Positions 1 through 64,000 of a stretch of DNA of 64,000 nucleotides are shown here, piece after piece. This stretch comes from Eledone cirrhosa. Taxonomy: Eukaryota. Within the stretch, counting starts at the first letter, position 1. Each line of letters starts with the position of its first letter. Made by a program: the position numbers and the translations under genes. Under the pieces are notes generated by a model, which saw only the letters and a program-made list of their open reading frames with translations, made no database searches and was not told the origin of the DNA. Location of the stretch: positions 23,388 through 87,387 of the forward strand of contig CAXHJY010001289.1 of the NCBI GenBank assembly GCA_964016885.1, in the 5' to 3' direction.

Positions 1-165
1 GTGAAAACTCGGTACATCTACATATGTACACGTGTGTGTATTCATATGCATACTAGTATTTCAGTATACATATGTGGATGTACATTTTTAACTTAATTGT
101 TTAAGCGTCAGTCATACAAAAGTGAGTTACAAACGAAACGAAATTTAATTTCGTTTCGTTATTTG

Positions 166-171
<6 letters not shown>
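1..171 (+). mobile_element. Partial copy of the 467-nt hammerhead-bearing unit (inverted relative to 2512-2684), ending in (TA)n
   Basis: 1-171 is the near reverse complement of 2512-2684 and includes the palindrome aacgaaacgaaatttaatttcgtttcgtt. Confidence 0.8.
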
Positions 172-202
<31 letters not shown>

Positions 203-2494: not shown

Positions 2495-3003
2495 CCGGTT
2501 CAGCGGAGACGATAAAAACAAATAACGAAACGAAATTAAATTTCGTTTCGTTTGTAACTCACTTTTGTATGACTGACGCTTAAACAATTAAGTTAAAAAT
2601 GTACATCTACATATGCATACTGAAATACTAGTATGCATATGAAGACACACACGTATACATATGTAGATGTAACAAGTCTTTCACTGGTTACTTTACTGTG
2701 AGTAACCCAGCTATTCTGTATGTAAACACACAGACAAACCGGTTTTTAGAGTCATACTGGTTTTCGAGGAAACACCTTTCCTCTATTCTCCAGAAAGCCA
2801 GACAAGGAATATTGAACTAGTTTCGTTGTTATTACAACTCATCAGCAATATTTACCTATCTACCGGCCTTTCTGGAGAATCGTAAAAGCACATATCGTTA
2901 TATGCTTTTTCTATGAAAATTAGTAGTGGGCAGACTAATTTACATAGAGTGTGAGTACGCACCGGTTCAGCGGAGATGATAAAAACAAATAACGAAACGA
3001 AAT
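2495..3003 (-). mobile_element. Non-coding 467-nt hammerhead unit with ~42-nt terminal redundancy (retrozyme-like)
   Basis: 2495-2536 recurs at 2962-3003 with 1 mismatch; contains a hammerhead at 2808-2852; no ORF. Confidence 0.7.
2808..2852 (-). ncRNA. Type-I hammerhead ribozyme, intact core
   Basis: Minus strand: aatattg-CTGATGA-gttgt aata acaac-GAAAC TA GTT-caatatt; outer helix attctccagaaag/ctttctggagaat. Confidence 0.88.
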
Positions 3004-7488: not shown

Positions 7489-7500
7489 CATCTATATTAA

Positions 7501-8010: not shown

Positions 8011-8041
<31 letters not shown>

Positions 8042-8269
8042 CTCTCTCTATCAGTCGTGTGTCACTTCGCGGAGAAGTTTCCGTTAATTTATGTAAGGAA
8101 AAAACGTGAGTTTTTAGTTCAATTTTATATCATTGTGTAACTTGACCACCCGTCTGGACCTTCAGGTGGTGGGTCAACTCATTTTCGCCCCTTCAGGGGC
8201 GGAATATCCATTTAAAAAATTTTTCTCCATCGAATCTTGGAAAAAATATTGTAAAATTTTGATTACGTT

Positions 8270-10174: not shown

Positions 10175-10207
10175 TCTCTTTTCCTCTTTTAACTTTTCAG
10201 CACCAAC

Positions 10208-13645: not shown

Positions 13646-14121
13646 GTTGAGGAAAAGGAGGAGGAGAGGAAGGGAGTACAAGCTCTTCGTACTCCTGGAG
13701 ATGAGGGTTGCACATTTTTTTCGGGGGTCTGTGTTACCCATATAAACTGTCTCCCTCTATTGGGGAAAATCGACTAACTTTTAAATTCCATCTGTGATAA
13801 CATTTTACACGTTTTTATTGTATGTAAACTTCCCCCTTTGTATTTGTCCCCTTCTTTTGTGCCCCTGTGGCTAATAAAGAAATATATCTATCTATCTCAC
13901 TATCAGTCGTGTGTCACTTCGCGGAGAAGTTTCCGTTAATTTATGTAAGGAAAAAACGTGAGTTTTTAGTTCAATTTTATATCATTGTGTAACTTGACCA
14001 CCCGTCTGGACCTTCAGGTGGTGGGTCAACTCATTTTCGCCCCTACAGGGGCGGAATATCCATTTAAAAAATTTTTCTCCATCGAATCTTGGAAAAAATA
14101 TTGTAAAATTTTGATTACGTT

Positions 14122-16038: not shown

Positions 16039-16071
16039 TCTCTTTTCCTCTTTTAACTTTTCAGCACCAAC

Positions 16072-19000: not shown

Positions 19001-19509
19001 CCCTGGCCTGGCAGTGCTACCGAGGAGCTCTACCAGTTCGAGACAAGCTCTACAGACATGGGCGCCCGGGCAGGGACCCTGCAAAAAAGATCTGTCCGAG
19101 GTGCGTGCGAGACGAAGAAACCGTCGCGCACGCATTCATACACTGCCCGGGCGTCACTGACCTGTGGGGCTATGTAGAACGACTATTGTCGCGGGTGGGA
19201 CCAATCCAGTTGACCACCGAGTCCATTGTCATGATCAAACCGCCACCCTCCTTCAAAAACGAAGGAGAGGCGGTTTTCCTTTGTGTGATAGCTATGGCGA
19301 AAGAGGTTGTATGGTGGACAAGGTTGAAAGGGCTGAGGTCAGACACCTTTCTCTCCGGCCAACAACTGATTCTTTTTTTCAAATACCACTTTGGAAGAAG
19401 AATCAGGATGGAGAGAGAGGTGCTGTACCCCAGCAAGTTTTATGAAAGGTGGGTGAAAGTGGCGAGAATGGCCCGAGTGAATGGGCCTTCTCTCTATATC
19501 AGCCTGTAG
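16072..19509 (+). CDS. LINE ORF2p (APE-RT-ZnF)
   Basis: 1145 aa, intact, about six residue differences from copy 1. Confidence 0.97.
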   Translation: MANIRVGCVNVRGLGMPWKQGKLLNDLRSHSLDVVAICESRIHGERQLAPIFDDFEIYASLCQPGGGGGVAVLLRKHLGLVTQTVHLDPEGRLVVLDVDGSEGGAFRLVAAYAPSGTPRPDFFKRLETFLGTCRSLLLVGDWNGILDARWDYVGACPDKGGCNSLKQLIDRFDLADRYRLDFPTAPLWTWSNRSGTSRSYLDRVLVRNKDRDMLSCPQMFMVAYSDHKLVTCMANLDRTHRQGPGYWKLNLSLPTSKAYSRRISTLVKQHLTGAIVNNRWWYPLKRAVRLDSIVFSKELALDRNRTEKELVDKVEEAIRSGNVASVLATRTALDQFFDAKHEGCVVRSKIRALGNEGAKAVSWARVTEAKSGNKSTIRSLKDQNGRVIREPKQMCAAFQRHFARLFGGSGAPGEAMDFGPYLDGLPRLSDSEAKFCEKPISATEIGDALSQCGKRKSPGLDGLPYEFYVAMPDLFSGLLEAVYCNWQQNGRIPSSVTGGVVTLIRKDENKGDDIGNFRPITLLNTELQILAKVLAKRLALVVENLVGEAQTCAIPTRSIHDNLHLMRYIIERVGCKPGFGGALINLDQSKAFDRVDHRYLDAVLEAAGFGPVFRGWIAAMHNSNICSRVKVNGYLSEPFHITRSIRQGCPLSSLLYVLTLEPLLRKLELLQGIPLEPGLRKAASAYADDVTVMVSSASQIEEVGTLLKEYESLTGAKLNRDKSIGLQLGSWRGRPMPSDGVVGRWTEGPVKLLGVWFGPDLQVEKNWNEVTAKVFALTQKWAECKLSLKGRAEVANTFIASAIYYRLTVVPCPAKTLAKMERALFRFLWKRRAPLVRRSICCQHPSNGGLGMPWLTMRKHALRLRHLYVFLTGQPVWAPFVRRAFPRLVSLTELQSWVKQRPRKMGDWHIECAQALTALWQADPAISGDSTSSFYRGLVRSKCDDALGETLGVEEDELASLFGRTFRPGPMDNFQKSLAWQCYRGALPVRDKLYRHGRPGRDPAKKICPRCVRDEETVAHAFIHCPGVTDLWGYVERLLSRVGPIQLTTESIVMIKPPPSFKNEGEAVFLCVIAMAKEVVWWTRLKGLRSDTFLSGQQLILFFKYHFGRRIRMEREVLYPSKFYERWVKVARMARVNGPSLYISL

Positions 19510-19748
19510 ATTGAGGAAAAGGAGGAGGAGAGGAAAGGAGTACAAGCTCTTCGTACTCCTGGAGATGAGGGTTGCACATTTTTTTCGGGGGTCTGTGTTA
19601 CCCATATAAACTGTCTCCCTCTATTGGGGAAAATCGACTAACTTTTAAATTCCATCTGTGATAACATTTTACACGTTTTTATTGTATGTAAACTTCCCCC
19701 TTTGTATTTGTCCCCTTCTTTTGTGCCCCTGTGGCTAATAAAGAAATA

Positions 19749-19795
<47 letters not shown>

Positions 19796-19797
<2 letters not shown>

Positions 19798-20640
19798 GGC
19801 ACACTGAGTGTGCCCAGGCGCTCACCGCCCTCTGGCAGGCGGATCCGGTTATCAGTGGAGACTCCACCGCAACATTCTATAGAGGGCTGGTACGCAGCAG
19901 GTGCGACGACGCCCTCGGAGAAGCCCTAGACATGGAGGAGGACGAACTGGCCAGCCTGTTCGGTAGGACATTCAGCCCGGGACCTATGGACAACTTCCAG
20001 AAGTCCCTGGCCTGGCAGTGCTACCGAGGGGCTTTACCCGTTCGAGAAAGGCTCTACAGACACGGGCGCCCGGGTAGGGACCCCGCCAAAAAGATCTGTC
20101 CCAGATGCGTGTGCGACGAGGAAACCGTTGCACACGCATTGGTACACTGCTCGGGCGTAGCCGATCTGTGGGGCTATGTCGAACAACTGCTGTCAAGGGT
20201 GGGACCGATCCGGTTGACCACCGAGTCTATTGTAATGATCAAGCCGCCTCCCCCCTTCAAAGATGAAGCAGAGGCGGTGTTTCTGTGCGTAATAGCCATG
20301 GCGAAAGAGGTTGTATGGTGGACGCGTCTGAAAGGACTGAGGTCAGGCACCTTTCTCTCTGGCCAACAACTGGTCCGTTTCTTCCGTTATCATTTCGGAA
20401 GAAGGATCAGGATGGAGAGAGAGGTGCTGCACCCCAGCCGTTTCTATGAAAGATGGGTGAAAGTTGCGAGAATGGCCCGTGTGAATGGGCCTTCACTCTA
20501 CATCAGACTATAGGTGAGGAAGATGAAAGACCAAGGGAGCACACCTTCTCTGTGCTCCTGAGGAGAAGGGTTGCACACTTTTTTCGGGGGTGTGTGCGAC
20601 CCCCCAAGGCGCCTCCTCTCTATTGAGGATTTTGTTATAA
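19796..20640 (+). mobile_element. 5'-truncated Tx1 copy 3 (diverged subfamily), 3'UTR incomplete
   Basis: ORF2 C-terminus WHTECAQAL...SLYIRL* directly after (ATCT)n; no AATAAA or tail before copy 4. Confidence 0.9.
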
Positions 20641-22289
20641 ATGAAAAAGACATCAACAATTCTACAGATACATCTACACATAAAATTTCCAACAACGATA
20701 ACATCATTATTAACAACAACATCACACAAAAAAAAGAAAATGTCTTTTGCTGACTCAGTCAACAAGAAACAAGATTTTATAAATCTTGATATCTCCAACG
20801 CAAGAGATATGCTCCAGCAAGGGAGAAAATTTGTAACTTTCGAAGAAAGAGGTGGGTTTAGAATTAACTCACCCCTTGAAATAAAGGAAGACACAAACCG
20901 CCGATCAGTCACTTTTAGGACTGTGTCAAATTCAAGAAAACCGACATTTGTTAATCAGTCAGATATAGAAGATTCTTTCAAGGAGATTCTAGGAAATGTC
21001 GATTTTCTTCAGCGAGGAAAACAGTACGGAAGTGTTTCCGTACTGTTTAAAAGCGAGACACTGGCCCAAAAAAGCTCTGTGACACCAATAGTGTCAAAAT
21101 CATACACCTTTTTCCCTACATACATGGGGAAAAGGACACGAAAGATAAAAATAAAAAAATATACCTCCAAGCATTAACATCTGGTGGATCTTGGCTGGCT
21201 TCGTAGAGCCAGAAACAGACATAATACTTTCGATACGAAAATCCATTCGACAAAGGTGGGCGGGCACAGATTTGGAGATTCTGTTGCAAATGAAACCGGA
21301 GAGAATCTCCAAAATACCCGAAAGAGTCGTTATTGATAATAACAACAAAATAAACATTTCGGTAGAAGGAAGAAAATTTCACTGCTTTTGCTGTGGTAGC
21401 ACATCTCACCTAAAAGCCTCTTGTCCACAAACACACAACAGCAACATCATAAAAAAAACGCTATTACCAACACCAACACCAAAACAACCACCACCACCAC
21501 CACAAGTACAACGACAGACGAAACGAGCAACCACACCAAAACAAACAGACACTCAACCAACAACAACAGAAAAAACAGAGACAACACCCCTGAAGAACAC
21601 ATCCCCACTCCATCCCACTCCATCAAACACTACCACAAACACACATACCGAAACACCACCACCACCACACAACATACCCTTACCCCACACACCTGACGAT
21701 GATTATTCATCGACGCATGAAGCTGCTTCTCCTTCTTTAAGTGAAGAAGAGGGAGAACCGCGGAAATCCAAAAAACAAAAAAAGAGACACCACAAAACCC
21801 CCAAAACTCCAATCACCAACACCAACACACAACCACAGACACAAACAACAACACAAACAACACCACAGTCAAACACCCTCCTATCAGCAAAACCAGCACC
21901 AACACCACCCCAAACACAAAGCACCCACCATAAAAAGAAAACTCCCGGATGAACAACAAACTAAAACAATACAACAAAAACACAAACAACAATACGCATA
22001 CATCAACACAAACAACAAGAGTTTGATGGAGGTCATCTCCCAAAACCCCAAGGTGGAGACGGAGGGCAAAACTTTCGTCAAGGCAGAATCGTCTCCACAC
22101 CTTAAACTTATAAGGGTTTCTATGGAAACATATAAAGACCTGAAAATTAAATTTCCACAGGACGTGGGCAACCCCTGCCACAAACCCATCAACCGCGTCC
22201 TGTTGAAAGGTTTCCCCACCCCACTCAACACCCCATCCAGCACCCAAATGGAGATTGAACAACCCGATCTCCAGGAAACGAAAAGGTAA
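20641..22289 (+). pseudogene. ORF1 of copy 4, split over three ORF segments
   Basis: YTFFPTYMGKRT and CFCCGSTSHLKASC; frameshifts near 21165 and 21945. Confidence 0.85.
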
Positions 22290-22330
22290 GTGCACCTTTC
22301 GTCCTTTTTCTCCAACTTTTCTTCACCAAC

Positions 22331-25300
22331 ATGGCTGGTTTACGTGTTGGAACCGTGAATGTGCGTGGCCTAGGGATGCCCTGGAAACAGGGCCAACTTT
22401 TAAACGACCTTAGGTCACACAGTATGGATGTGATAGCCATCACCGAGTCCAGAATCCACAACAGGCAGCAACTAACCCCCATCTTCGACGACTTTGAGAT
22501 CTACGCATCTCTCTGTCAGCCAGGAGGTGGAGGTGGAGTGGCTGTTATGTTTCGGAAGAACCTGGACGTCGGAGTACAGCAAGTACACTTGGACCCGGAG
22601 GGTAGACTGGTAGTCCTAGACGTGAACAGTATCGGAGGTGGAGCCTTCAGACTGGTGGCCGTTTATGCCCCGACCGGGCAATCGCAATCACGGCCAGACT
22701 TCTTTAAGCATCTAGAGTCTTTTCTGGGAACGTCTCGCTCCTTACTTTTAGTGGGGGACTGGAATGGTATCCTAGATGCACGATGGGACTATGTGAGAGC
22801 ATGTCCCATGACCATGCGGGGTGCAACAGTCTCAAAACTTTAATCGGCCAATTCCAACTGGCCGATAGGTATCGACTGGATTTCCCGACTGCACCACAGT
22901 GGACGTGGGTAAACCGTAGTGGGACATCTAGATCGTATTTAGATAGGTTCTTCATTAGAGAAAGGGACAAGGATATGTTAAGCTGTACACGAATGCACAT
23001 GGTTGCCTATTCAGATCACAAGTTAGTCGTCTGCTTAGTCAACCGTGATAGAATACATAAACAGGGTCCCGGATACTGGAAGCTGAACGTGTCGTTGCCG
23101 GCACGTAAAGCTTACAGTGAACGGATAAGTAAACTAGTCAAGCAACAGTTTACGGGAGCCATCGTCAACAATAGATGGTGGTACTCTCTCAAGAAATCAA
23201 TTAGAATAGAATCGATAGGTTATAGCAGAGAGTTAGCCTTAGAGAAAAACAGAATAGAAAGAGAACTAGTAGCCAAGGTAGAGGAGGCACTTAGAAGTGG
23301 CAACGCGGCTAGAGTGTTAGCGTCGAGAACGGCACTGGACCAGTTCTTCGATGCGAAACACGAAGGCTGCGTGGTCAGAAGCAAAACACGTGTTCTAGGA
23401 AACGAAGGAGCGAAAGCTGTCAGCTGGGCCCGAGTGGCGGAGGCAAAAATTGGCAACAAGTCCACGATTCGGTCTTTGAAAGACCAAAACGGACGCGTGC
23501 TACTTGACCCCAAGCAAATGTGCGCGGCCTTTCAGCCGCACTTTGCGCGACTGTTTGAGCAGAACGACGGTGAGCCGAACGGGGCAATGGACTTTAGTTC
23601 ATACCTCGACGGCCTGCCGCGTCTCTCGAACACGGACGCCGAGTTCTGCGAAAGACCGATCACGGACACTGAGATACGGGACGCTCTGGGCCGCTGCGGG
23701 AAACGCAAGTCACCCGGTCTAGATGGTCTACCCTACGAATTTTACATAGGCATGCGGGACTTGTTCTCTGGCGTCCTCGAAGCCGTCTACTGCAATTGGC
23801 AGCAGAACGGGAGAATTCCCAGTTCTGCAGGCAAGGGCGTAGTAACGCTGATCAGGAAAGACGAGAACAAGGGGGACGAAATTAACAACTTCAGGCCCAT
23901 AACTCTGCTCAACACAGAGTTAAAGATTTTGGCCAAGGTGCTAGCGACGAGGTTGGCGCTTGTCGAGAACCTGGTAGGGAAAGCGCAAACGTGTGCAATC
24001 CCGACCAGGTCCATACACGACAACCTCCACCTCATGCGATACATCATAGAGAGGGTGGGTAGTAAACCCGGCTTCGGTGGGGCTCTGATCAACTTGGATC
24101 AGTCTAAGGCATTCGATAGGGTCGACCATCGATACTTGGAAGCGGTTCTCAAGGCGGCCGGTTTCGGTCCCGTGTTCAGAGGATGGATCGAGGCGATGCA
24201 CACCAGCATCTGCTCGAGGGTCAAGGTGAACGGCTACCTATCGGAGCCGTTCGCAATCACGCGTTCCATTCGACAGGGATGCCCTCTCTCCTCCATTCTG
24301 TATGTATTGACTCTAGAGCCACTACTGCGGAAATTGGAGCTGTTGCAGGGCATCCCCTAGAACCGGGACTGCGCAAAGCGGCGTCGGCTTATGCCGACGA
24401 CGTGACAGTAATGGTGTCGAGCACCTCGGAAATCGGGGTGATCGGCAACATACTGAAAGAATACGAAACGCTGACGGGAGCAAAACTAAATCCAGACAAG
24501 TCTGTCGGTTTGCAACTCGGTACGTGGAGAGGCAAACCGATGACATCCGACAGCGTCGTTGGACGCTGGACGGACGGACTGGTGAAATTGCTCGGGGTCT
24601 GGTTCGGTCCAGACCTCCAGGTGGAGAAAAACTGGAACGAGGTCACGGCCAAGGTGTTTGCACTCACTCAGAAGTGGGCAGAGTGCAAACTGTCCTTGAA
24701 AGGTCGAGCGGAGGTGGCGAACACTTTCATAGCGTCCGTCATCTACTACCGCTTGACTGTCGTGCCTTGTCCCCGTGAACACCTCGCCAAGATGGAACGC
24801 ATGCTCTTCCAGTTTCTGTGGAAGAAGCAGGCTCCGCTGGTGAGGAGATCCGTCTGCTGTCAGCACCCTTCCAACGAAGGGCTGGGAATGCCGTGGCTGA
24901 TGATGCGCAAACATGCGCTGAGGCTGCGGCATCTCCAGGTATTCCTCACCGACCCCCAACCGGTGTGGGCACCGTTTGTGAGACAGGCTTTCCCACAGCT
25001 CGTCTCGCTAACGGAGCTGCAGTCCTGGGTGAAGAAAAGACCGAAAACGATGGCCGCCTGGCACATTGAATGCGCTCAGGCGCTCACAGTCCTCTGGCAA
25101 GCGGGCGCAGCAATCAGTGGAGACTCCACTTCGACATTCTATAGAGGGATTGTACGTTACAAGGGCGACGACGTGCTCGGAGAGACTCTGGGCGTCGAAG
25201 TCGATGAGCTCACCAGTATGTTTGGTAGGACTTTCCGCCCGGGACCTATGGACAACTTCCAGAGGTCCCTGGCCTGGCAGTGCTACCGAGGAGCTCTACC

Positions 25301-25774
25301 GGTTCGTGACAAGATCTACAGGCACGGACGCCCTGGCAGGGATCCTGCCAAGAGGACGTGTCCAAGATGTGCGCAGGACATTGAAACAGTTCTGCACGCA
25401 ATTGTACACTGCCCGGGCGTAAGCGACCTGTGGAACTATGCAGAACAACTGCTGTCGCGTATGGGACAAATACAGTTGACTGCCGAGTCCATAGTAAGGA
25501 TCAAACCGCCAGACTCTTTCAAAAACGAAAGAGAGGCGGTTTTCCTCTGTACGGTGGCTATGGTGAAAGAAGTTATATGGTGGACGAGGTTGAGAGGACT
25601 GAGGACAGATGCCTTTCTCTCCGGACAACAATTGATTCCCTTCTTTAAGTATCACTTTAGAAGGAGAATCAGTTGGAGAGAGAGGCACTACACCCCAGTA
25701 AATTTACTGAAAGGTGGGTGAATGAAGCGCAAATGGCCCGAGTGATTGGGCCTTCTCTGTTTATAAGCCTGTAG
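22331..25774 (+). pseudogene. ORF2 of copy 4, frameshifted
   Basis: Colinear with the 1145-aa ORF2; frameshifts near 22805, 24355 and 25670. Confidence 0.9.
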
Positions 25775-26006
25775 GTTGAGGAATGGAGCAAAAGGAAGAA
25801 AGGAGCACTTGCACAACACGCTCCTTGAGTTGAGGGTTGTTCTATTGACGGGGTATTAAACAACCCATTTGTGGCGCCTCCCCCCTATTGGGGATTTCGA
25901 TTGTTGAAATTGTTTGTTTTTATATTTTTTACACGACTGTATGTAAAATCCCCGGCATGTTTTGTATTGTCCCCTTTCTTGTTGCGCCCTTGTGGCTAAT
26001 AAAGAA

Positions 26007-26060
<54 letters not shown>

Positions 26061-27199: not shown

Positions 27200-28271
27200 G
27201 TACAGACCGTCTCCGTAAACAACTTATCAACTTTTTTCCGGGACTGGTGTTTTAAAATCACCCTACAAACGTCCCTAACCCGAGTAAATTTCCTGGACGT
27301 TACCCTCAACCTCGAAAATGATCTGTACTACTCATAGAGGAAACCAAACTTCAACCTGCACTACATCCACCGCCGCTCTAACCATCCTAGAAACATCACC
27401 AACAATCTGGTTAAAAACATCTCCCTCCGCATATCTCGTTTGTCACCTAATGAGCAGATATTCGACGAACATGCCCCTCATTACAACCAGGCCCCTAAGC
27501 GGTGTGGCTTCCGGGAAGAAATATCCTTTTATCCAGCTTCCCTTAGCGGAACCAGCAGGCGACCACGCCGCTCACGCCACGTAACGTGGTTCAATCCTCC
27601 CCCACAATGCCGAGGTGGCAACACCAATCGGGAAACTCTTCAATAGGCTCCTCGAAAAAGACTTTCCACCACAAAACCGCTACACAACATAATCAACTAA
27701 AACACTATCAAGCTATCCTACAGCACCACACGTAACTTCGTACAAAACAACGTCTCCTCAAACAACAAAAAACTCAACCCCTATGGAAGAAACAACCTAA
27801 ATATTAGTGGAGAACCGACCAGCAGGTGTAACTGCCCTGATAGATCTTCGAGCCCCCTCAACAACAGATGCCGAGAACGTAACGTGATCTACCAGTGCAA
27901 CGTGAGGATGGACACCTCCAACAAAGCTTATATAGTATTAACCGCTTGTTACTTTAAGACCCAACACCGACATACAACACCAACATACGTTCCGAAACAC
28001 GGTCCGGCGACATGCCAACACACTTTCGGGCCATATCTGGGCCCTCCAAGATAATAATATAACTTACCATCTTACTTGGAGCTTACTGTCCAGAGCTAAC
28101 TCTTACACGGCAGGATGCCGTCCATGTAACTTATGCTCGGAGGAAACATTACAAATGCTGTTTACGAAGGATCAACTCTTAAACAGAAAATATGAACTGG
28201 TAACTGCATGCAAACACAGATTGCGGAAGACTTACCTCGCCCTCAAACCCCCTAACGATCCGGGTGGGTAG
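27200..28271 (+). pseudogene. Disrupted PLE RT-thumb + GIY-YIG ORF
   Basis: VNFLDVTLNL, YIHRRSNHP, VTWFNPP, RCNC, NVIYQC, CNLCSEE, ACKH, with stops and frameshifts. Confidence 0.85.
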
Positions 28272-29371: not shown

Positions 29372-30114
<743 letters not shown>

Positions 30115-30144
30115 AGTGGTTACACAACAGTTAGTTCACCATAG

Positions 30145-30182
30145 CGAGAACAATTGTTTCACCTTAGCGGATCCTCAGCTCG
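30145..30182 (-). ncRNA. Minimal type-I hammerhead inside a 65-bp-arm inverted repeat (30114-30251)
   Basis: Minus strand: cgag-CTGAGGA-tcc gctaa ggt-GAAAC AATT GTT-ctcg; the plus arm repeats the core without the 5' helix I strand. Confidence 0.8.
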
Positions 30183-30379
30183 TAATCTGAGGATCCGCTA
30201 AGGTGAAACAATTGTTCTCGGTATGGTGAACTAACTGTTGGGTAACCACTTCTACCTAACTCGTCCCATGGACTGAGCGCTCTACCACTACGGATATTAC
30301 CTTCCAGTGTTCTACCACTATATATATATATCTAAGGCGGGTAAAATTCCCGAGATCCATGGACGAGTTCTTTCCATGG

Positions 30380-30796: not shown

Positions 30797-30830
<34 letters not shown>

Positions 30831-30834
30831 ATAT

Positions 30835-31038
30835 ATAACGAAGGAAATGTGGTAAGGAACCAGGTGGACCATAACGCACCAAAGTACTCAATACTTAGGG
30901 TAGTAGAGTGGGTAATTGGAACGAGTAGGACCTCGACGGCTGAGCTTAAGCCGTTTCGACGGCTAATTCTGGACTAAATTTTAGTCCAGAATTAGCCGTC
31001 GAAACGGCTTGAGCTCAGTAGTCGAGGTTCTACTCGTT

Positions 31039-31041
<3 letters not shown>
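30835..31041 (-). mobile_element. Family B terminus with inverted duplication centred near 30979
   Basis: Arms 30918-30978 and 30980-31040 each carry GAAACGGC-tt(a/g)agctca-G..GTC. Confidence 0.8.
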
Positions 31042-31111
<70 letters not shown>

Positions 31112-32619: not shown

Positions 32620-32950
32620 GGGGCAAAGAGGAGAGAGAAAGAGAGACAGAGAGAGTGAGAAAAGGGGGATGGCAGGGGAAAAATATGTATTTTCTAATGT
32701 GTAAAGGAACGAAACTCTATTTCTTGATACACTCATATTTTTTAGACGGGAATTATATAAGTATTAATATAATACTGCTTTATACTCTAAAGTTTGATTT
32801 TTAATTGAAGGTATAGGATCACTTATCTATTGTTTCCGGTTAGATATATAATTCATAGATATTGTATTTTATATAAAGATTCCAAACTATACTGACGATA
32901 TCATTTTTATAATTTGACTGATCTCATAAAACATACATATGCATATATAT

Positions 32951-33130
32951 TTAATATAGAAATGGCTTCTACAGGACTAGAACTGTTTCATTCAGGGGAA
33001 ACCATCATGATTTCCTCCGAATGAAGCAGTTCTAGTCCTGTAGAAGCCATTTGTATATTAAATTACTTTTACTCTGCTATGTATTGAGTACCTTACTTAC
33101 TGTGGTTATCCCCGATTTAACCCGGTATCT
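32951..33130 (+). mobile_element. Family A pLTR terminus with inverted half-hammerheads
   Basis: Arms 32951-33001 and 33010-33061; 33070-33125 matches the reverse complement of 26529-26586. Confidence 0.8.
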
Positions 33131-35239: not shown

Positions 35240-36357
35240 TATTGAGCACTTTTATTCGATATGTGTATTTCCACATTTTTTCGAATAGTTTTCGCGGATG
35301 TAGAGGTTATCTCCCTTGCCGAATTCCATGTGCGTATTTTGCCTGGGTCTTAGCCATCTTATCCGTTCGGACGAAAGCTCGTTGAAGAAGTAAATTTCCA
35401 GTCCGCTGAATTCTAGAAGTCTTATATATTTATATGTGAGCTGATAGAGTACAGTTTAAGGATTTACAGAAACCCAAGAACCTAGATTTAACACCTTTCT
35501 AGTGGGTCCGGGTATGATTTTACATTCATTTAAATTTATTAATTTATTGATATTTTTTATCTGATTGTCCTGAATCTTCTGTTATCGATTTTTTATCGTG
35601 CGGTTGATTTTAGACTTGTTCTATGTGTGACGGTATTTTAACGATAGTTATAGCTCTGATTTATCTGAATTATTGAGCCCTCTGCCGCTCATTTCGAATT
35701 TTGTTTATCGTGAACTCGTGCGCCGATTTTTCGATACTCGATCATTCTAATATTTTTAGCTCTGGACATAGCTATCCACCAGTTAATTTTATTGTTGATT
35801 TTTTGTCGATTCTATTGAGTGATGAATAGCTCCTGTTTTATTTTAACATGTCTATTGAGCACTTTTATTCGATATGTGTATTTCCACATTTTTTCGAATA
35901 GTTTTTGCGGATGTAGAGGTTATCTCCCTTGCCGAATTCCATGTGCATATTTTGCCTGGGTCTTAGCCATCTTATCCGTTCGGACGAAAGCTCGTTGAAG
36001 AAGTAAATTTCCAGTCCGCTGAATTCTAGAAGTCTTATATATTTATATGTGAGCTGATAGAGTACAGTTTAAGGATTTACAGAAACCCAAGAAGCTAGAT
36101 TTAACACCTTTCTAGTGGGTCCAGGTATGATTTTACATTCATTTAAATTTATTAATTTATTGATATTTTTTATCTGATTGTCCCGAATCTTCTGTTATCG
36201 ATTTTTTACCGTGCGGTTGATTTTAGACTTGTTCTATGTGTGACGGTATTTTAACGATAGTTATAGCTCTGATTTATCTGAATTATTGAGCCCTCTGCCG
36301 CTCATTTCGAATTTTGTTTATCGTGAACTCGTGCGCCGATTTTTCGATACTCGATCA

Positions 36358-36366
<9 letters not shown>
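35240..36366. repeat. Tandem duplication, 613-bp unit (about 1.8 copies, near-identical)
   Basis: tattgagcacttttattcg starts at 35240 and 35853; bounded by (TA)-type repeats. Confidence 0.92.
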
Positions 36367-50256: not shown

Positions 50257-50336
50257 CATAAGGGATATTTAATTTTTTGGTAATATATATATATGTTTAT
50301 AGCTGATTCGAAGCACTCGACAGCTGTCTGGATTAT

Positions 50337-50642
50337 AATATCAATGATATTAAATAAATGGGAACTATATTTATAAAACCATATTTATTCTATTATATAT
50401 ATTTCAAGGTTACCAACACTTTGGTACGCACTCATCAGTCAAAATAAAAAGTTTGTATTATAAATGAAAAGCTTGAACCGCTAAGAACTTCTTCCTGGAT
50501 ATGTCAATATTTATAAAACAAACTTTGTATTTTGTTTGATGAGCGCGTACCAAAGTTTTGGTACCCTTGAAATATATATAATAGAATAAGTATGGTATAG
50601 TTTTATAAATATAGTTTCCATTTAGTTAATATCATTGATATA
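50337..50642. mobile_element. Inverted repeat (~130-bp arms) with candidate hammerheads at 50386-50446 (-) and 50528-50588 (+)
   Basis: tattttg(a/t)-(C/T)TGATGA-g..gtaccaa..ttggta..-GAAA TATATA TA-atagaata. Confidence 0.6.
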
Positions 50643-50654
50643 TATATATAAACT

Positions 50655-51138
50655 GAAAAAAATTAAACGAAATTTCATTTCCCTCTCTTAGTACGGCTGT
50701 TACTTAAATATAAGTATATACACGTACATACATATATGTATACAGACGTATAGTAGTATATATATATATATATACATACATGCACACATATATATATATG
50801 TACGTATGGATACATATATTATGCATATTAACTCAGCCGTTAATTTGCATAAGTTAAGTATATACGTTCAACAATCTGGCAGGAAGGTATACGTTGTTGA
50901 CGATAGCTAATAAGCTTGAAACTAGTACAGCGTTCCTTTGTCAGTGTTGAACAAACGAGCAACGATGGTTGCTAGACACTACGGCTTAATATGGGATGTT
51001 TGTTTACAAACACACCGAGCATTATAATAAATGTTCGGTGAATCCATACGTACATATATATATATGTGTGCATGTATGTATATATATATATACATACTAC
51101 TGTACGTCTGTATACATATATGTATGTACGTGTACATA

Positions 51139-51145
<7 letters not shown>
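50655..51145 (+). mobile_element. Partial 428-nt hammerhead unit (family D) with inverted left segment
   Basis: 50832-51143 is homologous to 62431-62750; 50655-50810 is an inverted copy of the unit's 3' part. Confidence 0.8.
50891..50933 (+). ncRNA. Type-I hammerhead (C3U variant)
   Basis: acgttg-TTGACGA-tagc taataa gctt-GAAAC TA GTA-cagcgt. Confidence 0.75.
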
Positions 51146-51183
<38 letters not shown>

Positions 51184-52550: not shown

Positions 52551-52667
<117 letters not shown>

Positions 52668-52712
52668 TAAACAAATAATGAACAAACAATTCCTTATATT
52701 AAACAAAAAAAG

Positions 52713-52867
52713 TTCACTATTTAACGATCGTTTCTAGGGCATATATGTGCTATAATTGGTATGCATATTTAACAGATCTATGTACAAAATTATACAAAAT
52801 TATACAAATTATCAAGATTAAATATACATACCTAACTCATATATACGCCGTCTTCAGAAATAATGAA
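52713..52867 (-). ncRNA. Long-helix-II hammerhead (inverted copy)
   Basis: Reverse complement of 57748-57902. Confidence 0.75.
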
Positions 52868-52875
52868 GTATATTC

Positions 52876-54525
52876 CTGAACAAAGCATTAATATTTGCTA
52901 AAAATAGATCTAATTTAACTTCGGATGACATTAACATTATTACACATGCTAGACAAACACTTATTGAATTTCAGAATGAATACTGGACCAGAAACACTTA
53001 TAGTAATCTTTTTGATATTACTATGGGTTCAAGCGATTCTGCCCAAATTACTGATCTTGTGGGCCTCTTTCTCCTTTTCAACATAAATGCCTCTTTTCCC
53101 CACCTCAAAGGTGGTTTATATCGTGATGACTGTCTTCTTCTTTCTAACAACCTTAGCCTTTCAGAAATCGAAAAAAACAAAAAGCATATTAGAACTTTCC
53201 TTAAGGACTATTATAATCTTAATATTACTTTTGAAAAAACAAGTAAAGTAGTAAATTTCCTAGATATAACTTTAGATTTAGCTACGGGTATATACCAACC
53301 TTACCATAAACCTAACCAAAACTTACATTACATACACTCACAATCTAATCACCCTAAATCTATCCTTAAAAACCTTGCATATAATATATCACTTAGAATT
53401 TCTAACCTTTCTTCTAACCAAGATGTATTTGATAAAAATGCGACCTTTTATAATGAAGCTCTAGATAGAAGTGGCCACAAAAATAGATTAGAGTATATAA
53501 CTTCTACTAAAAATACTGAAAACATACAGCATAATATTACCAACAAACACCAAATGAAAGGTACACACCTAAATGCCACCCACAGTATACCCCAAAATAC
53601 TAAATCTTCTAATATAAAGTATAGTAACCCTCAAAAAACTACTCATCATAAGACTATAATAAATATTAATAATAAAACTCCTAATAAAAAAGATAAAACA
53701 CCTAAATCTACAAATATAACTAAAAATAGTTGTGGTGAGATCATTAACATTATTCCTCCTAGTAAAAATCATGATACAACATATAAAAATAATAAAAATA
53801 ATAAACAACATAGAAACCGTAATAGACGAGTTACTTGGTATAATGCTCCTTTTAATTTACAAGTTAAGGATAATATTGCTAAAAAATTTTTTTATATCCT
53901 TGAGAAAAACTTCCCGCCAAACCACAAATACCATCAAATCTTAAATAGGTCTACAGTTAAATTCTCATATTCTACAACAAATAACATAAAACAAAATATA
54001 AGTGCATATAATGCATATAAATGTAAGAAAACTATAAGTATACCACCAGTACATCAAATTAACAATAATATCTCCTCAAATACAGAATTAACGAAAGGAT
54101 GTAACTGTAGAAACAAAACAAACTGCCCATTAAAAGGGAATTGTCTTGTTAACAACATAGTCTATAAATGTAATGTTAAAACTAAAGATTCTATTTGCTC
54201 ATATATAGGAGCTACCTCTAACAATTTTAAGACAAGGTATAATACCCACAAACATAGCTTTAAAAATGCTGCACTGGCTAATACAACATCTCTAGCAGAA
54301 AAAATCAATAGTTATAAAAATAAAAATATAAAATATGATTTGACCTGGAGTGTGCTCAAAAGAGCCACCCCTTATCAAAATAATAGAAAGGAATGTAGAT
54401 TATGTTCCCAAGAACTATTTGAAATAATGAAGTCTAGGGATATCTTATTAAATAAAAGACAGGAATTAATTATATCGTGTAATCATAAACTAAAAAAAAC
54501 ATTTAAATATTATAAACCTAATTAA
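52876..54525 (+). CDS. PLE reverse transcriptase (C-terminal half) + GIY-YIG endonuclease, 5'-truncated
   Basis: Frame is open from the inversion junction: FDITMGSSDSA, LYRDD, VNFLDITL, SNHP, VTWYNAPF, CNCRNKTNCPLKGNC, NIVY..SYIG, CRLC..SCNH. Confidence 0.92.
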   Translation: MNKALIFAKNRSNLTSDDINIITHARQTLIEFQNEYWTRNTYSNLFDITMGSSDSAQITDLVGLFLLFNINASFPHLKGGLYRDDCLLLSNNLSLSEIEKNKKHIRTFLKDYYNLNITFEKTSKVVNFLDITLDLATGIYQPYHKPNQNLHYIHSQSNHPKSILKNLAYNISLRISNLSSNQDVFDKNATFYNEALDRSGHKNRLEYITSTKNTENIQHNITNKHQMKGTHLNATHSIPQNTKSSNIKYSNPQKTTHHKTIININNKTPNKKDKTPKSTNITKNSCGEIINIIPPSKNHDTTYKNNKNNKQHRNRNRRVTWYNAPFNLQVKDNIAKKFFYILEKNFPPNHKYHQILNRSTVKFSYSTTNNIKQNISAYNAYKCKKTISIPPVHQINNNISSNTELTKGCNCRNKTNCPLKGNCLVNNIVYKCNVKTKDSICSYIGATSNNFKTRYNTHKHSFKNAALANTTSLAEKINSYKNKNIKYDLTWSVLKRATPYQNNRKECRLCSQELFEIMKSRDILLNKRQELIISCNHKLKKTFKYYKPN

Positions 54526-55034
54526 TAACATTATTCTAGAATTTAATTTAATTTAAATGTTAGTTAACCTATAAATTTAATTTAATTAATATTTTATTAC
54601 AGATGAGAAAATATTATGTAATCATTAATTTTGAAAAACCTTTAAATATTACTAATATATATTCAGTATTTTAATTTATAGATTAATTTTAACTTATTTT
54701 AACCTTTTATTATAATTTTTTAATTTAGTTTAACCTTTTATTATAAAATTTTTTTTATTATAATTCTTTTACAGATAAAATATAACAAAATAATATCATG
54801 TATCCTATGACGGAGAAAGAATTTTTAGTATTATTGACCTAATTAATATACATTTTGGAAATATATTTATTATTTGGTTTTAGCTTTAATCAACCTAAAA
54901 CTTTAATTTTAATTTTAATTTGCTTAAAATTAGTATCCTTGTACAGACGAATTGCAGAATTTCATGTAATCATAGAATGGGAGGTGTTTTTGGATATATA
55001 CCTAGTTAATATATTCTGTGCAAATTTTTTGAAA

Positions 55035-56337
55035 AAGATATGTATATCTATATGTATATGTATATGTGTGTATTGTATGTGTATCTGTATGTATATTTAT
55101 GTGACTATATATGTATGTATGTGTGTATATATATGTATATATATATATATATATGTGTATGTATATGTATATGTATGTGTATGTGTATGTATATGTATGT
55201 GTATGCGTATTAATTTTGATTTTTATTTGCATATAATTATATTATGCTATTGATGAAATACAATATCTGCTTTATGTATTGTATACCTAATTAACATATA
55301 CTAATTAACATATACTATTGAAATAAATATATAATTTTTAACTTAGTTTACATATAATTTATATGCTACTACCGATGTAATACTTTATTTTATTTTTATT
55401 TGGGTTTCTTTTCCCTATTATTAACTTTAATTTAGTTATAATGTAATTAATAATCTACTACTGTTTGACTTCATAATTCTGCTTTAAATATTATAAACCT
55501 AACTAATTTACACCTTGGAAATCAATATGTTGACTATCTTTGGTTTAGTTGACATATGATTAATGGTATACTTTTTTATTTTGTGATGCATAGATTTCGT
55601 ATTTCCTAGCATTGAAAATATGTAAGAACATACATTGAATTAAGATATGGAAAATATTATAAGTTTCTTGAAACATATATTTACTTTGATCCCCTTCTCC
55701 AAACCCCCCCCTTTCCCCCATACTATTATCATCTGTTTTTGTAAGTGTATATGTATGAATATATGGGTAGATGGGTGTCTATATAGTTTTTTTGGTATTT
55801 ATTTCTAGATATAAAAATACATATATGAGCATGTAAATATGAATGTAAGATTGAGTGTGTATATATGATTGTACATACATATGTATGTATATGTATGTAT
55901 ATATATGTATTATATATGTACGTGTATGTGAATGTGTGGTATATATATGTGTAGGTATATGTATATATGTGTGCGTATGTGTATGCTTGTATATAGGAAT
56001 ATATATGTGTGTATATATGTATATATGTATATGCGTGTTTGCATGTATGTGTATATGGGTTCTGTATATATTTGTATGTCTCTCTATTTATATGTTTATC
56101 TTCGTATCTATGTGATATATGTGTGTGTGTGTGCATGTATGCATATGTATGTGTTTGTGTGTGTTTGTATGTGTGTGGTTATATATATGTATGTATTTGC
56201 GCACACTCACATACACATATATATATATATATATATATATATGTGAGTGTGTATGTGTGTCTGTATGTGTGTGCGTGTGTATATATGTGTATATATATAT
56301 ATATGTGTATGTATGTGTATGTGTGTGTATATAGATA

Positions 56338-56374
<37 letters not shown>

Positions 56375-56513
56375 ATATAGGTGTCTATGTGTGAATATAT
56401 GTCTTTATTCGTATGTGTGTATTTATATATGTTTATATTTAGGTGTATGTATGTATGTGTATGTATGTATGTATATGTATGTGTATGTATGTATATGTGT
56501 ATATGTGTGTATA

Positions 56514-56544
<31 letters not shown>

Positions 56545-56767
56545 TATTCTTTATTATTATTGTAATATAACTTATGTGTATATGTGTATAAGTGAGGTTG
56601 TGTATGTATATATACTACGTGTATATATAAGGGTAATGAAATGTATATATATATATATATATATATATATGTGCATGTCTGTATTTTATGTGTGTGTGTA
56701 TATATATATATATGTGTATGTGTGTATATGTGTATGTATATATGCATATATGTGTACGTGTGTGTAT

Positions 56768-56819
<52 letters not shown>

Positions 56820-56929
56820 GGATGTTTGTATGTGTTTTCATGGTGGTATGAGTGTGTGATATATATGTTTATGTATAAGTATATGTATGTGTATGTATAT
56901 ATATATGAGTCTATGTGTGTGTGTGTATA

Positions 56930-56980
<51 letters not shown>

Positions 56981-57170
56981 ATGTGTGTATGTGTTGCGCG
57001 TGTGTGTGTCCGTATTTTTATCTTTTTATATGTGTATGTGTATGTTCGTGTAAATGTATGTGTGTGTATGACAGTATAGGTATGTGTGTATGTATGTATG
57101 TGTAGATATCTCTATGTGCGCGTACATGTACGTATGTGTATGTATATCTGTATGCGTATGTACATTATAT
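55035..57170. repeat. Mosaic (TG)/(TA) microsatellite within the PLE 3' region
   Basis: Lies between the ORF stop and the pLTR. Confidence 0.85.
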
Positions 57171-57747
57171 TATGTAATATATTTTATTGTTTTTATTTTT
57201 TTATTTTTCATAATTTATAGATACATTTATATTAGGCTGTCTGGTCTGACAACCTAATACTGACCCCTCCCCCCCCCTCCCACCTAATTTCTGTATCTTG
57301 ATCTTGAAATGTGTGTACCAGTGTGTTTATGTGAGTGACTTAATTTCTATTTGCTTATGATTTTATATCCACATATATAAATGTGAGTGAGGGGTGTGTG
57401 TGTGTTTGTGTGTTCGTGGTTATGTGTATATTTATATATATACGCACATGTATGTGTGATTATACTGATATGTGTGAGTATGAAAAAAATATATTTATAT
57501 GCTTGACTACATAAGTATCATTGCGTATCTTATCAGCGCATTAAGCTTACAGAGATATTAACCTTGAAATTTTTTATTTGCATCCATCTTTTTAGTATGC
57601 ACATACATATTTTACACACATTATTGTAAAATGTGTGTAGGGTTTTACATGTATATACACACACCAAACTGCTTTTTAACCCTTTGTGTTTTCATTGGTC
57701 AATTTTGAACTGATATTTTGAATTGTTGTTATTATCAATAAATATAC

Positions 57748-57902
57748 TTCATTATTTCTGAAGACGGCGTATATATGAGTTAGGTATGTATATTTAATCT
57801 TGATAATTTGTATAATTTTGTATAATTTTGTACATAGATCTGTTAAATATGCATACCAATTATAGCACATATATGCCCTAGAAACGATCGTTAAATAGTG
57901 AA
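57748..57902 (+). ncRNA. Type-I hammerhead with a 116-nt helix II domain
   Basis: ttcattattt-CTGAAGA-[57765-57880 hairpin]-GAAAC GATC GTT-aaatagtgaa. Confidence 0.78.
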
Positions 57903-58090
57903 CTTTTTTTGTTTAATATAAGGAATTGTTTGTTCATTATTTGTTTAATATTTTATCTTGACTCTGTATACCGTTTATCTTTCACCGAAATTGGATTTTC
58001 ATTACATCTCTTCTTTCCATGATATCCGGAATACATTGAGTTCTTCATACGGATTGGATACTACCGTAAACTCTTGGTAGATTTATCTAC

Positions 58091-58124
<34 letters not shown>

Positions 58125-60143: not shown

Positions 60144-60990
60144 TTATGTATTATTCAGCTTGTAGTGGGAAAAAAGGGTTTTAGTTCGGTGACAGCAGAA
60201 TAATGTTCGTTCAATTCTGTTATTCAGCAATTTCTTCTTGTGTGTGATTATGTAATAAATCTCAAGATTACACAATTTGCAGAAATTTTGGCTCCTGGAA
60301 AAGCTTTGGGTTTTAGCTAATTTCTCCCATTTTAGGGTAAACTTTTGATCGCTATCCCTGAGCGTCCAAGCTTTTTCTGCTAAAGTTGTTACATTTCTTT
60401 GGCTCTGGTGTTTTATTGAGTAAGAATGCCTATATAATCGAGATTTAAACGATGTTGCCGTTGATCCCACGTAATACCACTCGTTGCCTCCGGATTTAAT
60501 GGTACAATTATAAATAATTTTTTTTTCCAGGCAGTTATTGCCGAGGGGGCAGTTGTCAGAATAGGTGCAGTTACAGTTGTGTACGTTGGGTTTTCTCTGG
60601 AGTAGTATTGCGGACGAACTTAGGTGTGGTTTATTTATGTTCTGTAGTGTATTGTCTACTGTTTTTTTTGTGTTCTTTGTACTTAAGTTTTTAGTGTTTT
60701 CGTTTAACCTTCTAGTATTGATCTTTTTTATGTGTTGTTCAAGGTTTAACGCTGTAGAGTATGACAGTCTTATAGTGGTAGGGTTTAGGATTTTGTGGTA
60801 TTTGTGTGATGTAGGAAAATGTCTCTTAATTATTTTAAAGAAGAGTACTGGTAAATTTGTACTAATGGAACTATTGTATTCGGGGTTATACCATAAGTAC
60901 TCTTTGCATAGGTAAGTATATATTACCCGTATGTTTTGTGAAGGTATGTATACCTTCTCGTACGTATATTTGACTGTTATAGCGTATAAT
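60144..60990 (-). mobile_element. PLE linker + GIY-YIG coding fragment
   Basis: Frame extends upstream of the listed ORF: YLWYNPEY..HKYHKILN..LSYS..CNCTYSDNCPLGNNC..IIY..YYVG..CKLC..CCH. Confidence 0.85.
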
Positions 60991-61414
60991 CTTTACATAT
61001 TCTGGTATTTAGGGTTTGGCTATGTGTATACGGGAGTTTTGCGTCCGCGTGAGTGTGCAGGTTCGTACGTATGGTGGGTGTGTGTATATGTGTACTTCTT
61101 GTTTTAGTTGACTTACGTCTCCGAACATTCGTGTATTTATATGTAGGTATGCGTGTGCGCTTGTTATATACGTATTTATTTACTTATATACGTTTATATA
61201 ATTATTTATTTATTTGTACACAAGCATACACACACACACACATATTTATATGTGCGTGGTTTTGTATACCCATGGTAAGGTTTTGCGTATGCTTGTGTAT
61301 GTACGTATCTGTTTGCGTGTATGTATTTATTTGTTTCTATTATCTCTGTATTGTATTTATTTACTTTGTTCTTAACTCTGTAGCGGAGATTCATTTGGTC
61401 TCCTAGTTAGAATT

Positions 61415-61811: not shown

Positions 61812-61941
61812 TTAATCTGTTATTTTAATAAATATTTGCTCTACGGTTCTTATATATTTGATATATATTTTCCTTATCGAGCCCTCTTTGGATTTTAGTC
61901 TTCAATTTTATTATTATTACTATATATATATATATATATAA

Positions 61942-62100
<159 letters not shown>

Positions 62101-62182
62101 CATATATAAATATATATATATATATATATGTATATAAGTATGTATACCTACATATATATATATGTTTATATATATATGTTTA

Positions 62183-62226
<44 letters not shown>

Positions 62227-62254
62227 AGTATGTATACCTACATATATATATATG

Positions 62255-62807
62255 TATATAAGTATGTATATCTACATATATATATATGTATAAGGACGTA
62301 CAGAAGTAAGTATATATATATATACATGCATGCACACATATATATATGTACGTATGGATTCACCGAACATTTCCGTTTATCGTTTTCGGTACCCCGGCCG
62401 ATTAACTCACTCGATATGCAAATTAGGCTGCTCAGCCGTTAATATGCATAAGGAAAGTACATACATTCAGACGTTCAATCATCTGGCAGGAAGGTATACG
62501 TTGCTGACGTTAGCTAATAAGCTTGAAACTAGTACTGCGTTCCTTTGTCAGTGTTGAACAAACGAGCAACGATGGTTGCTGGACACTACGGCTTAATTCG
62601 GGATGTTTGATTACAAACACACCGGGCATTATAATAAATGTTCGGTGAATCCATACGTACATATATATATGTGTGCATCTATGTATATATATATATACAT
62701 ACTATTGTACGTCTGTATGGATATATGTATGTACGTATACATACTTATATTTAAGTAACAGCCGTACTAATAGTGAGAAATGAAATTTCGTTTCATTTTT
62801 CCGTTTA

Positions 62808-62808
<1 letters not shown>
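62255..62808 (+). mobile_element. Complete 428-nt hammerhead unit (62371-62798) with terminal redundancy and inverted left segment
   Basis: tttccgtttat at 62370 and 62798; hammerhead at 62498-62540; no genuine ORF. Confidence 0.7.
62498..62540 (+). ncRNA. Type-I hammerhead (A9U variant)
   Basis: acgttg-CTGACGT-tagc taataa gctt-GAAAC TA GTA-ctgcgt; consensus with the 50891 copy is canonical CUGACGA. Confidence 0.72.
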
Positions 62809-62887
<79 letters not shown>

Positions 62888-62911
62888 TATATATATATAT
62901 ATATATGTTTA

Positions 62912-62957
<46 letters not shown>

Positions 62958-63235
62958 TATATATATATATATATATGTTTATATATATATATGTTTATAT
63001 ATATATATATGTATATGTATATATATATATGTTTATATATATATATATGTTTATGTATATATATATGTTTATATATATATATATATGTATATATATGTTT
63101 ATATATATATATATATATATATGTACATATATGTTTATATATATATATGTTTATATATATATATATATGTTTATATATATATGTTTATATATATATGTTT
63201 ATATATATATATGTGTTTATATATATATATATGTT

Positions 63236-63266
<31 letters not shown>

Positions 63267-63453
63267 GTTTATATATATATGTATATAATTGTTTATATAT
63301 ATATACTTATATATATATGTATATATATGTTTATATTTATATATATATATATATTTATATATATGTTTATATATATATGTATATATATATATGTTTATAT
63401 ATATATGTATATATTTGTTTATATATGTTTATATATATATATATATATTTGTT

Positions 63454-63489
<36 letters not shown>

Positions 63490-63520
63490 TTTGTTTATAT
63501 ATATATATATAAATATATAT

Positions 63521-64000
63521 GTAGATAAATCTACCAAGAGTTTACGGTAGTGTCCAATCCGTATGAAGAACTCAATGTAATCCGGATATCATGGAAAGAA
63601 GAGATGCAATGAAAAATCACTTTCGGTGAAAGATAAACGGAAAACAGAGTCAAGATAAAATATTAAAAAAAATAATGAATAAAACAATGAAACAGTTCTT
63701 TATATTAAACAAAAAAAGTTCATTATTTAACGATCGTTTCTAGGATATATATGTGTTAGAATTGGCATGCATATTCAACAGATCTATGTATAAAATTATA
63801 CAAAATTATACAAACTATCAAAATTAAATATACATACCAAACACATATATATGCCGTCTTCAGAAATAATTATTTCTGAAGACGGCATATATATGTGTTT
63901 GGTATGTATATTTAATTTTGATAGTTTGTATAATTTTGTACATAGATCTGTTGAATATGCATGCCAATTCTAACACATATATATCCTAGAAACGATCGTT
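63521..64000 (-). mobile_element. Diverged copy of the 57741-58090 pLTR with palindromic inversion; long-helix-II hammerheads at 63719-63870 (-) and 63870-64000 (+)
   Basis: Palindrome centre aaataa|ttattt at 63869/63870; same core motifs. Confidence 0.85.

Follow-up and report, generated by a model that had tools for sequence, protein, structure and literature searches.

A 428-nt non-coding repeat family carrying a hammerhead motif and showing Penelope-type insertion anatomy in the genome of Eledone cirrhosa

Introduction

What kind of element is a short, hammerhead-bearing sequence that begins and ends with the same 11 nucleotides and lies between two runs of (TA)n, and how did it get there? 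The question is posed by positions 62255–62808 of a 64,000-nt stretch of DNA from Eledone cirrhosa (GenBank assembly GCA_964016885.1, contig CAXHJY010001289.1, positions 23,388 to 87,387 of the forward strand), which we refer to throughout as the window. An earlier note, made from the letters of the window, had read the segment as one copy in a diversified family of non-autonomous, ribozyme-processed circular retroelements that parasitise (TA)n-targeting Penelope-like elements (PLEs).

Elements of this general kind have been published under the name of non-LTR retrozymes (PMC7229834; bioRxiv 10.64898/2026.07.22.740005). Circular RNAs have been demonstrated for the retrozymes of coral, mussel and axolotl, and PLEs have been proposed as retrozyme helpers (Cervera and de la Pena 2020, PMC7229834); a proposal that more-than-unit copies are made on circular templates dates from 2014 (PMC4209133). 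A recent preprint describes units of 51–972 bp, with monomers dispersed and multimers clustered (Li, Clavereau and Pollet 2026, 10.64898/2026.07.22.740005), and non-autonomous head-to-tail Chlamys elements have been described among PLEs (Craig et al. 2021, PMC8557442; Arkhipova et al. 2013, PMC3846280). Still debated in the cited papers are the mobiliser of animal retrozymes and the way in which the tandem, inverted and tailed insertions of PLEs arise.

Materials and Methods

Positions are those of the window. The repeat family represented by the segment was named D, with a period of 428 nt numbered u1–u428 from 62370, and the related family of 467-nt units was named E. Insertion ends of D were mapped in a sample consisting of the first 100 sites, in position order, of the motif just 3′ of the ribozyme cut, within the first 41 Mb of the contig that we label C1; this took in 77 segments at 64 loci. 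Rfam models were run on the entire window, where microsatellite matches to microRNA models dominated, as microsatellites also did in a repeat search of the window.

Results

The segment consists of an inverted arm followed by a direct arm, bounded on both sides by (TA)n, with the two arms overlapping by 3 nt:

61921..62255: (TA)n target, left flank
62256..62372, minus strand: inverted left arm of D copy 1 (u267–u381), its outer end running from site A into (TA)n
62370..62808, plus strand: direct arm of D copy 1, starting at u1 and passing once round the unit to u11 (439 nt, 1.03 units), its 3′ end running from site B into (TA)n
62498..62540, plus strand: type I hammerhead of copy 1, core starting at 62504
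62750..62753, plus strand: site A (u381–384), one of two fixed 3′ ends, predicted to lie within a small hairpin
62776..62808, plus strand: predicted hairpin kept in both families, then site B (after TTTAT, u11)
62809..63520: (TA)n target, right flank

As the earlier note had stated, the same 11 nt, TTTCCGTTTAT, stand at 62370 and 62798, making the direct piece 428 + 11 nt. In the hammerhead, helix I is formed by 62498–62503 and 62535–62540, GAAAC-UA-GUA occupies 62525–62534 and the predicted cut falls after 62534 (u165/166). This copy carries two defects—the A at position 9 is replaced by U (62510) and helix I has a mismatch at 62536—and contigs from two runs of unknown kind, aligned with 62370–62645, confirmed that this copy departs from the family at both places. 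Rfam returned no hammerhead match for copy 1. Copy 1 is a mutated member of a repeat family that is non-coding, has a 428-nt unit bearing a hammerhead and numbers thousands of copies.

The window holds a second D copy and two of family E:

50648..50814, minus strand: inverted arm of D copy 2 (u277–u11), its outer end running from site B into (TA)n
50820..51148, plus strand: direct arm of D copy 2 (u46–u384, less than one unit), its 3′ end at site A
2495..3003, minus strand: E copy, a 467-nt unit plus 42 nt, with an intact hammerhead at 2792–2863
1..172, plus strand: partial copy of E whose end, at the site B homologue, runs into (TA)n

Both D copies thus have the inverted left arm and (TA)n flanks that had been reported for them, and each has its two outer ends at different sites, A and B. 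The direct piece of copy 2 spans u46–u384 only and lacks the 11-nt redundancy, which is not a feature of the unit itself. Since its hammerhead carries C3 changed to U, and copy 1 has lost A9, whereas the core is intact in 70 of 100 sampled D motifs, both window copies are, to judge from these substitutions, probably dead. The E copy at 2495–3003 scores 39.1 bits with the Rfam model HH9 (gathering score 52), and its 3′ end, at neither site A nor site B, adjoins a LINE fragment in antisense orientation at 2495. The family includes tandem arrays in which at least two successive units each have a complete hammerhead; the window copies are not among them.

Other repeats were seen in the window. Short elements, either palindromic or repeated, that carry CUGANGA...GAAA motifs lie at 50334–50646, 30111–30254, 32949–33063, 7408–7496 and 30797–31072; they are probably stubs derived from other Penelope-like families. 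L1/Tx1-like LINEs, arranged head to tail and encoding RVT_1, endonuclease and zf-RVT domains, fill 8030–26058, with two intact 1150-aa frames that are 99% alike, followed by diverged copies; and 514 bp within 35240–36366 are directly duplicated at 99% identity.

The claim that the two families are homologous was borne out. D and E are colinear round the entire unit, with a global alignment score of 285.5 against 105 ± 10 for shuffled sequences (maximum 134, n = 200), and a local alignment score of 60 was reached by none of 300 shuffles. The sequence across the end-to-start join of D is contiguous in E, on the minus strand at 2536–2495, as had been noted, and both families carry GAAAC-UA-GUH. 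Their hammerheads share the same core while 5 of 15 base pairs are changed on both sides, and 95% of cells are paired compared with 33–49% in slid controls, a comparison of ten related rows that does not yield a probability.

An exact pattern for the D/E hammerhead matched 19,404 times in the 3.0-Gb genome (reversed control, 0) and a D-only motif 13,094 times; A stands at position 9 in 91 of 100 sampled D motifs. A pattern with a shorter helix II gave 112 matches, and those inspected were variants of D or E, belonged to an unrelated family of hammerhead-like sequences or were unclear. An intact D copy scored 19.7 bits in Rfam (E-value 0.008), under the gathering score of 52. In D the first pair of helix II is a U-U mismatch and helix III consists of a 2-bp palindrome, so that the monomer may cut poorly; a U-U at the base of helix II is also found in axolotl HHR_Amex2 (PMC7229834).

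Neither unit codes for protein: the longest ATG-initiated frame is 22–60 aa, no reverse transcriptase or GIY-YIG endonuclease reading frame was found within the D/E unit, and the GC content is 35–38%. Five of five natural cut-to-cut monomers were strongly self-paired when folded as circles (z from −8.4 to −12.5, 30 shuffles each). The predicted circular folds of D and E have a similar order of hairpins and leave the hammerhead free to form, and a predicted helix between u400–406 and u36–42 bridges the u428/u1 join. Units multimerise with a period of 420–470, and there are several subfamilies of D and E.

On the features examined, D and E are non-LTR retrozymes, with self-cleavage and an RNA circle predicted from sequence. 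Metazoan non-LTR retrozymes are likewise short, non-coding, tandem or dispersed repeats of low GC content, with a canonical type I hammerhead and a highly paired predicted circle in which the ribozyme is free to fold (PMC7229834). They differ in that their units measure 150–450 bp (PMC7229834), so that D (428 nt) and E (467 nt) lie at or above the range, and in that D/E occur mostly as dispersed insertions of 0.5–2 units.

The 3′ ends of D proved to be fixed. Among the 77 mapped segments, 38 ended at site A (u376–389), 27 at site B (u3–12) and 12 elsewhere, part of the last being alignment slips near B. The two sites are 55 nt apart and the two end classes together occupy 24 of 428 positions; 53 of the 65 segments that end at A or B enter a TA run. 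In E, 36 of 40 segments ended at sites homologous to A and B. The 5′ ends of D, by contrast, were scattered round the circle, and only 2 of 77 fell at u160–172, although the sampling motif sits just 3′ of the cut. No LTR appeared in the end maps of D or E, and the (TA)n flanks mask any target-site duplication.

End mapping excluded the 11-nt redundancy as a unit boundary or target duplication. With 3′ ends fixed and 5′ ends scattered, it amounts in copy 1 to a fixed 3′ end (u11) combined with a chance 5′ truncation (u1). The join itself, whose recurrence in other copies had been proposed as a test, is internal to the template: it was crossed by at least 12 nt in 53 of 77 segments, and exact join-spanning sequences matched 5,062 times in the genome (control, 0). 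The ribozyme cut site was crossed by 75 of the 77 segments and at least twice by 20, and 47 segments were longer than one unit.

Inverted insertions repeat the arrangement of the window copies. We found 74 in 135 D loci. In 44 of them each outer end could be assigned to A or B; the other 30 had an unassigned end. Of the 44, 41 paired A with B, two A with A and one B with B (binomial p = 8e-10, one A+B pair being a local duplicate). Family E gave 13 inverted insertions, with A+B in 10 of 10 assignable cases. This use of opposite sites by the two arms suggests twin priming by a Penelope-type dimer. Overlap at the inverted junctions ranged from −19 to +33 nt in 66 cases.

In D/E, a partial tandem, an inverted 5′-truncated arm, two alternative 3′ ends delimiting a “tail” and an AT-rich target together constitute Penelope-like insertion anatomy. 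PLEs in general, including the Hydra clade, likewise have (TA)n targets, partial tandems, hammerheads, an inverted 5′-truncated arm and a tail that is described, in qualitative terms, as often present at one end only (Craig et al. 2021, PMC8557442; Arkhipova et al. 2013, PMC3846280). D/E differ from them in lacking an ORF and in the length of the tail, 55 and ~70 nt against 30–40 in PLEs (PMC8557442, PMC3846280). A parallel is Poseidon of the green anole (Frangieh et al. 2024, PMC11167929), which also has two adjacent internal starts of reverse transcription that define a tail, an AT-rich target of which both strands are cut and extended, and a predicted dimer. Its starts are described there as not homologous to the target and as showing no strand difference in vitro, whereas both sites of D/E carry TA-like matches to it and the two arms almost always use opposite ones.

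Dispersed copies bear the marks of target-primed reverse transcription in their fixed 3′ ends, their random loss of 5′ sequence, their inverted arms and their (TA)n targets, and these features make it very improbable that D is satellite DNA spread by recombination at the DNA level with the hammerhead as a passenger. Arrays do grow at the DNA level, as that explanation would have it; even so, an E array of 31 units on contig C1 (5.738–5.753 Mb, two sampled loci) keeps canonical ends and an inverted arm, and a 15-unit array has canonical ends too. That D is a self-propagating, non-autonomous Penelope-type element we regard as very likely. In these respects—non-autonomous, hammerhead-bearing, diversified, (TA)n-targeted and with Penelope-type insertion anatomy—the genome-wide end mapping agrees with the earlier note.

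Two elements in the window are candidate helpers:

52659..58091, plus strand: PLE-1, a Hydra-type PLE, 5′-truncated, with an inverted left arm; a hammerhead of its own lies at 57758
60144..60992, minus strand: PLE-2, a second Hydra-type element, 3′ part of the ORF

We placed both by motifs: they share with the Hydra clade a C-terminal GIY-YIG domain and RWK-like, DKT, CxCx5C linker, CxxC and CxH motifs, together with a hammerhead and a (TA)n target (PMC8557442). Pfam gave no match to the truncated Penelope frames of the window, and intact frames of 830 aa (PLE-1) and 785 aa (PLE-2) occur at many places in the genome. Like D/E, each has two 3′ ends flanked by (TA)n, which lie 137 nt apart in PLE-1 and 118 nt apart in PLE-2. 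PLE-1 forms tandem units of ~6.1–6.4 kb with a microsatellite-rich 3′ UTR and a hammerhead whose helix II is ~110 nt; at ~6.1 kb its unit is longer than the <3 kb given for the Hydra clade (PMC8557442). The family is very young, since 150 of 150 scored matches were identical over the 147-aa endonuclease part (four sampled loci). PLE-2, at three sampled loci, has a ~3.6-kb unit with a long-helix-II hammerhead upstream of the start codon. In both the very long helix II contrasts with the short one of D/E. An inverted-repeat copy of the PLE-1 terminal region lies at 63520–64000, in the same (TA)n run as copy 1. Further Penelope-like pieces, with 40–65% identity to PLE-1 or PLE-2, were seen at 27224–28250 and 4714–5025 of the window and at four other sampled loci; one of these families could be the helper or parent of D/E.

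Comparison of D/E with the PLE-1 and PLE-2 loci by blastn, local alignment and a D+E profile gave simple-repeat matches or nested D copies only, and at 20 of 20 loci chosen for running past site B the sequence carried on as D, never into a reading frame. A Penelope-type helper is thus inferred from insertion anatomy. The same 20 loci weigh against the idea that the copies arose as stubs of, or by deletion from, the terminal repeat (pLTR) of an undiscovered autonomous PLE and are not self-propagating, as do the multimerisation of units (period 420–470) with no frame above 60 aa and the succession of several non-coding subfamilies. That idea, which we consider improbable, draws on the order of hammerhead, site A and site B, which matches the layout of a pLTR; on 58,000–65,000 first-look Penelope endonuclease candidates in the genome, which imply many unsampled families; and on the report that retrozymes are derived from pLTRs (bioRxiv 10.64898/2026.07.22.740005). 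We judge it likely that D/E originated from a pLTR and not likely that they now depend on a parent copy.

Whether the template was a circle is a separate matter. Lap-to-lap divergence within 42 A+B insertions was 3.4% (110/3269), equal to the arm-to-arm divergence of 3.4% (199/5886), with gap-adjacent columns removed; without that filter and without the restriction to A+B insertions, the figures were 5.6% for laps and 3.8% for arms. A test for private variants found 149 single against 9 shared alleles, and successive laps of any short insertion clearly shared none. One inverted insertion of 7.5 + 2.4 units had 1.3 differences per unit.

An E satellite array on contig C5 (87.618–87.670 Mb, three sampled loci) has at least 42 units with a mean of 4.5 differences per unit, and a D array of 20 units was found; some of our locus samples, including one behind these long-array figures, were biased towards close matches. 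Strict ABAB patterns of variants occurred in three arrays, where they may reflect either a dimer duplicated at the DNA level or a dimeric template that was copied, and patterns of 3–4 units occurred in a 31-mer. Because their variants are shared and periodic, long arrays were ruled out as single rolling-circle products; they appear to have grown by duplication and could supply linear multimers as templates.

Such multimers are the basis of the principal alternative, in which D is the same non-autonomous, Penelope-mobilised element and its templates are linear multimeric transcripts of uniform arrays, or jumps between cleaved monomers. The hammerhead would then merely trim long transcripts or act with the protein, and circles would have no role. 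We think this possible, at roughly half the weight of the circular reading. Long, nearly uniform arrays do exist (the E array of at least 42 units and the D 20-mer), and linear multimers from them also fit the read-through of the cut site and the likeness of laps. Read-through needs no circle, since uncleaved RNA is the main template of the anole element in vitro, where hammerhead cleavage is dispensable (PMC11167929). Linear templates predict every genomic result equally well, strong conservation of the ribozyme excepted. That exception counts against them—the hammerhead is canonical and conserved across several subfamilies and both families—as does the need for a very young, uniform source in each subfamily if laps are to be as similar as arms; related animal retrozymes, moreover, build up as circles (PMC7229834).

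The earlier note had argued for circularity from continuity across the end-to-start junction. That argument is weak, because any tandem template gives the same continuity and because the u428/u1 join differs from the cut at u165/166. Its conclusion fares better than its reasoning: read-through of the cut site and the likeness of successive laps make a circular template likely.

Discussion

Our preferred reading, to which we give a probability of about 0.6, is that D is a non-LTR retrozyme copied by a Hydra-type Penelope-like enzyme from a predicted circular RNA. In the mechanism we propose, copies bearing at least two intact hammerheads would be transcribed, ribozyme cleavage at u165/166 would release monomers and each monomer would be ligated into a circle. 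A Penelope-type protein would nick (TA)n and reverse transcription would begin inside the RNA at A or B, aided by a match of a few bases to TA; copying round the circle over a variable distance would then give insertions of 0.5 to several laps. In inverted insertions, priming would take place at A for one target strand and at B for the other, as by a protein dimer, and duplication at the DNA level would turn some insertions into satellite arrays.

Others have come to the same conclusion about the class: Li, Clavereau and Pollet (2026, 10.64898/2026.07.22.740005) regard retrozymes as non-autonomous Penelope derivatives. Their case, in the available text of the preprint, is built on co-occurrence in vertebrates and homology to pLTRs and leaves the mechanism open, whereas ours is built on insertion anatomy, with no pLTR parent found in the comparisons with PLE-1 and PLE-2. 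The available text of PMC7229834 reports RNA circles and no mapping of ends; for D/E the ends are mapped and the elements are known from genomic DNA alone. A search of mostly open literature, with Repbase and Dfam outside its range, found no published description of families D and E or of the count of one site per end. What D and E add is the mapped Penelope-type anatomy of a retrozyme, the conservation of start sites between two diverged families and the near-strict use of one site per end.

A more far-reaching interpretation, which we offer only tentatively, is that D and E are an ancient, structurally conserved pair of circular RNA parasites and that a reverse transcriptase dimer on one circle primes two strands from two fixed sites. 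If so, each inverted insertion, with one A end and one B end, would be a direct record of the Penelope mechanism; units of 430–470 nt would be minimal substrates, and carriers, of Hydra-type target-primed integration; and the role of the hammerhead in Penelope-type elements would be settled. With more than 19,000 motifs, a short template, two fixed starts and intact candidate helpers in one genome, both the mobiliser of animal retrozymes and the origin of tandem, inverted and tailed insertions become testable in vitro, and the value of D and E lies mainly in the clean test system that they offer for the Penelope mechanism.
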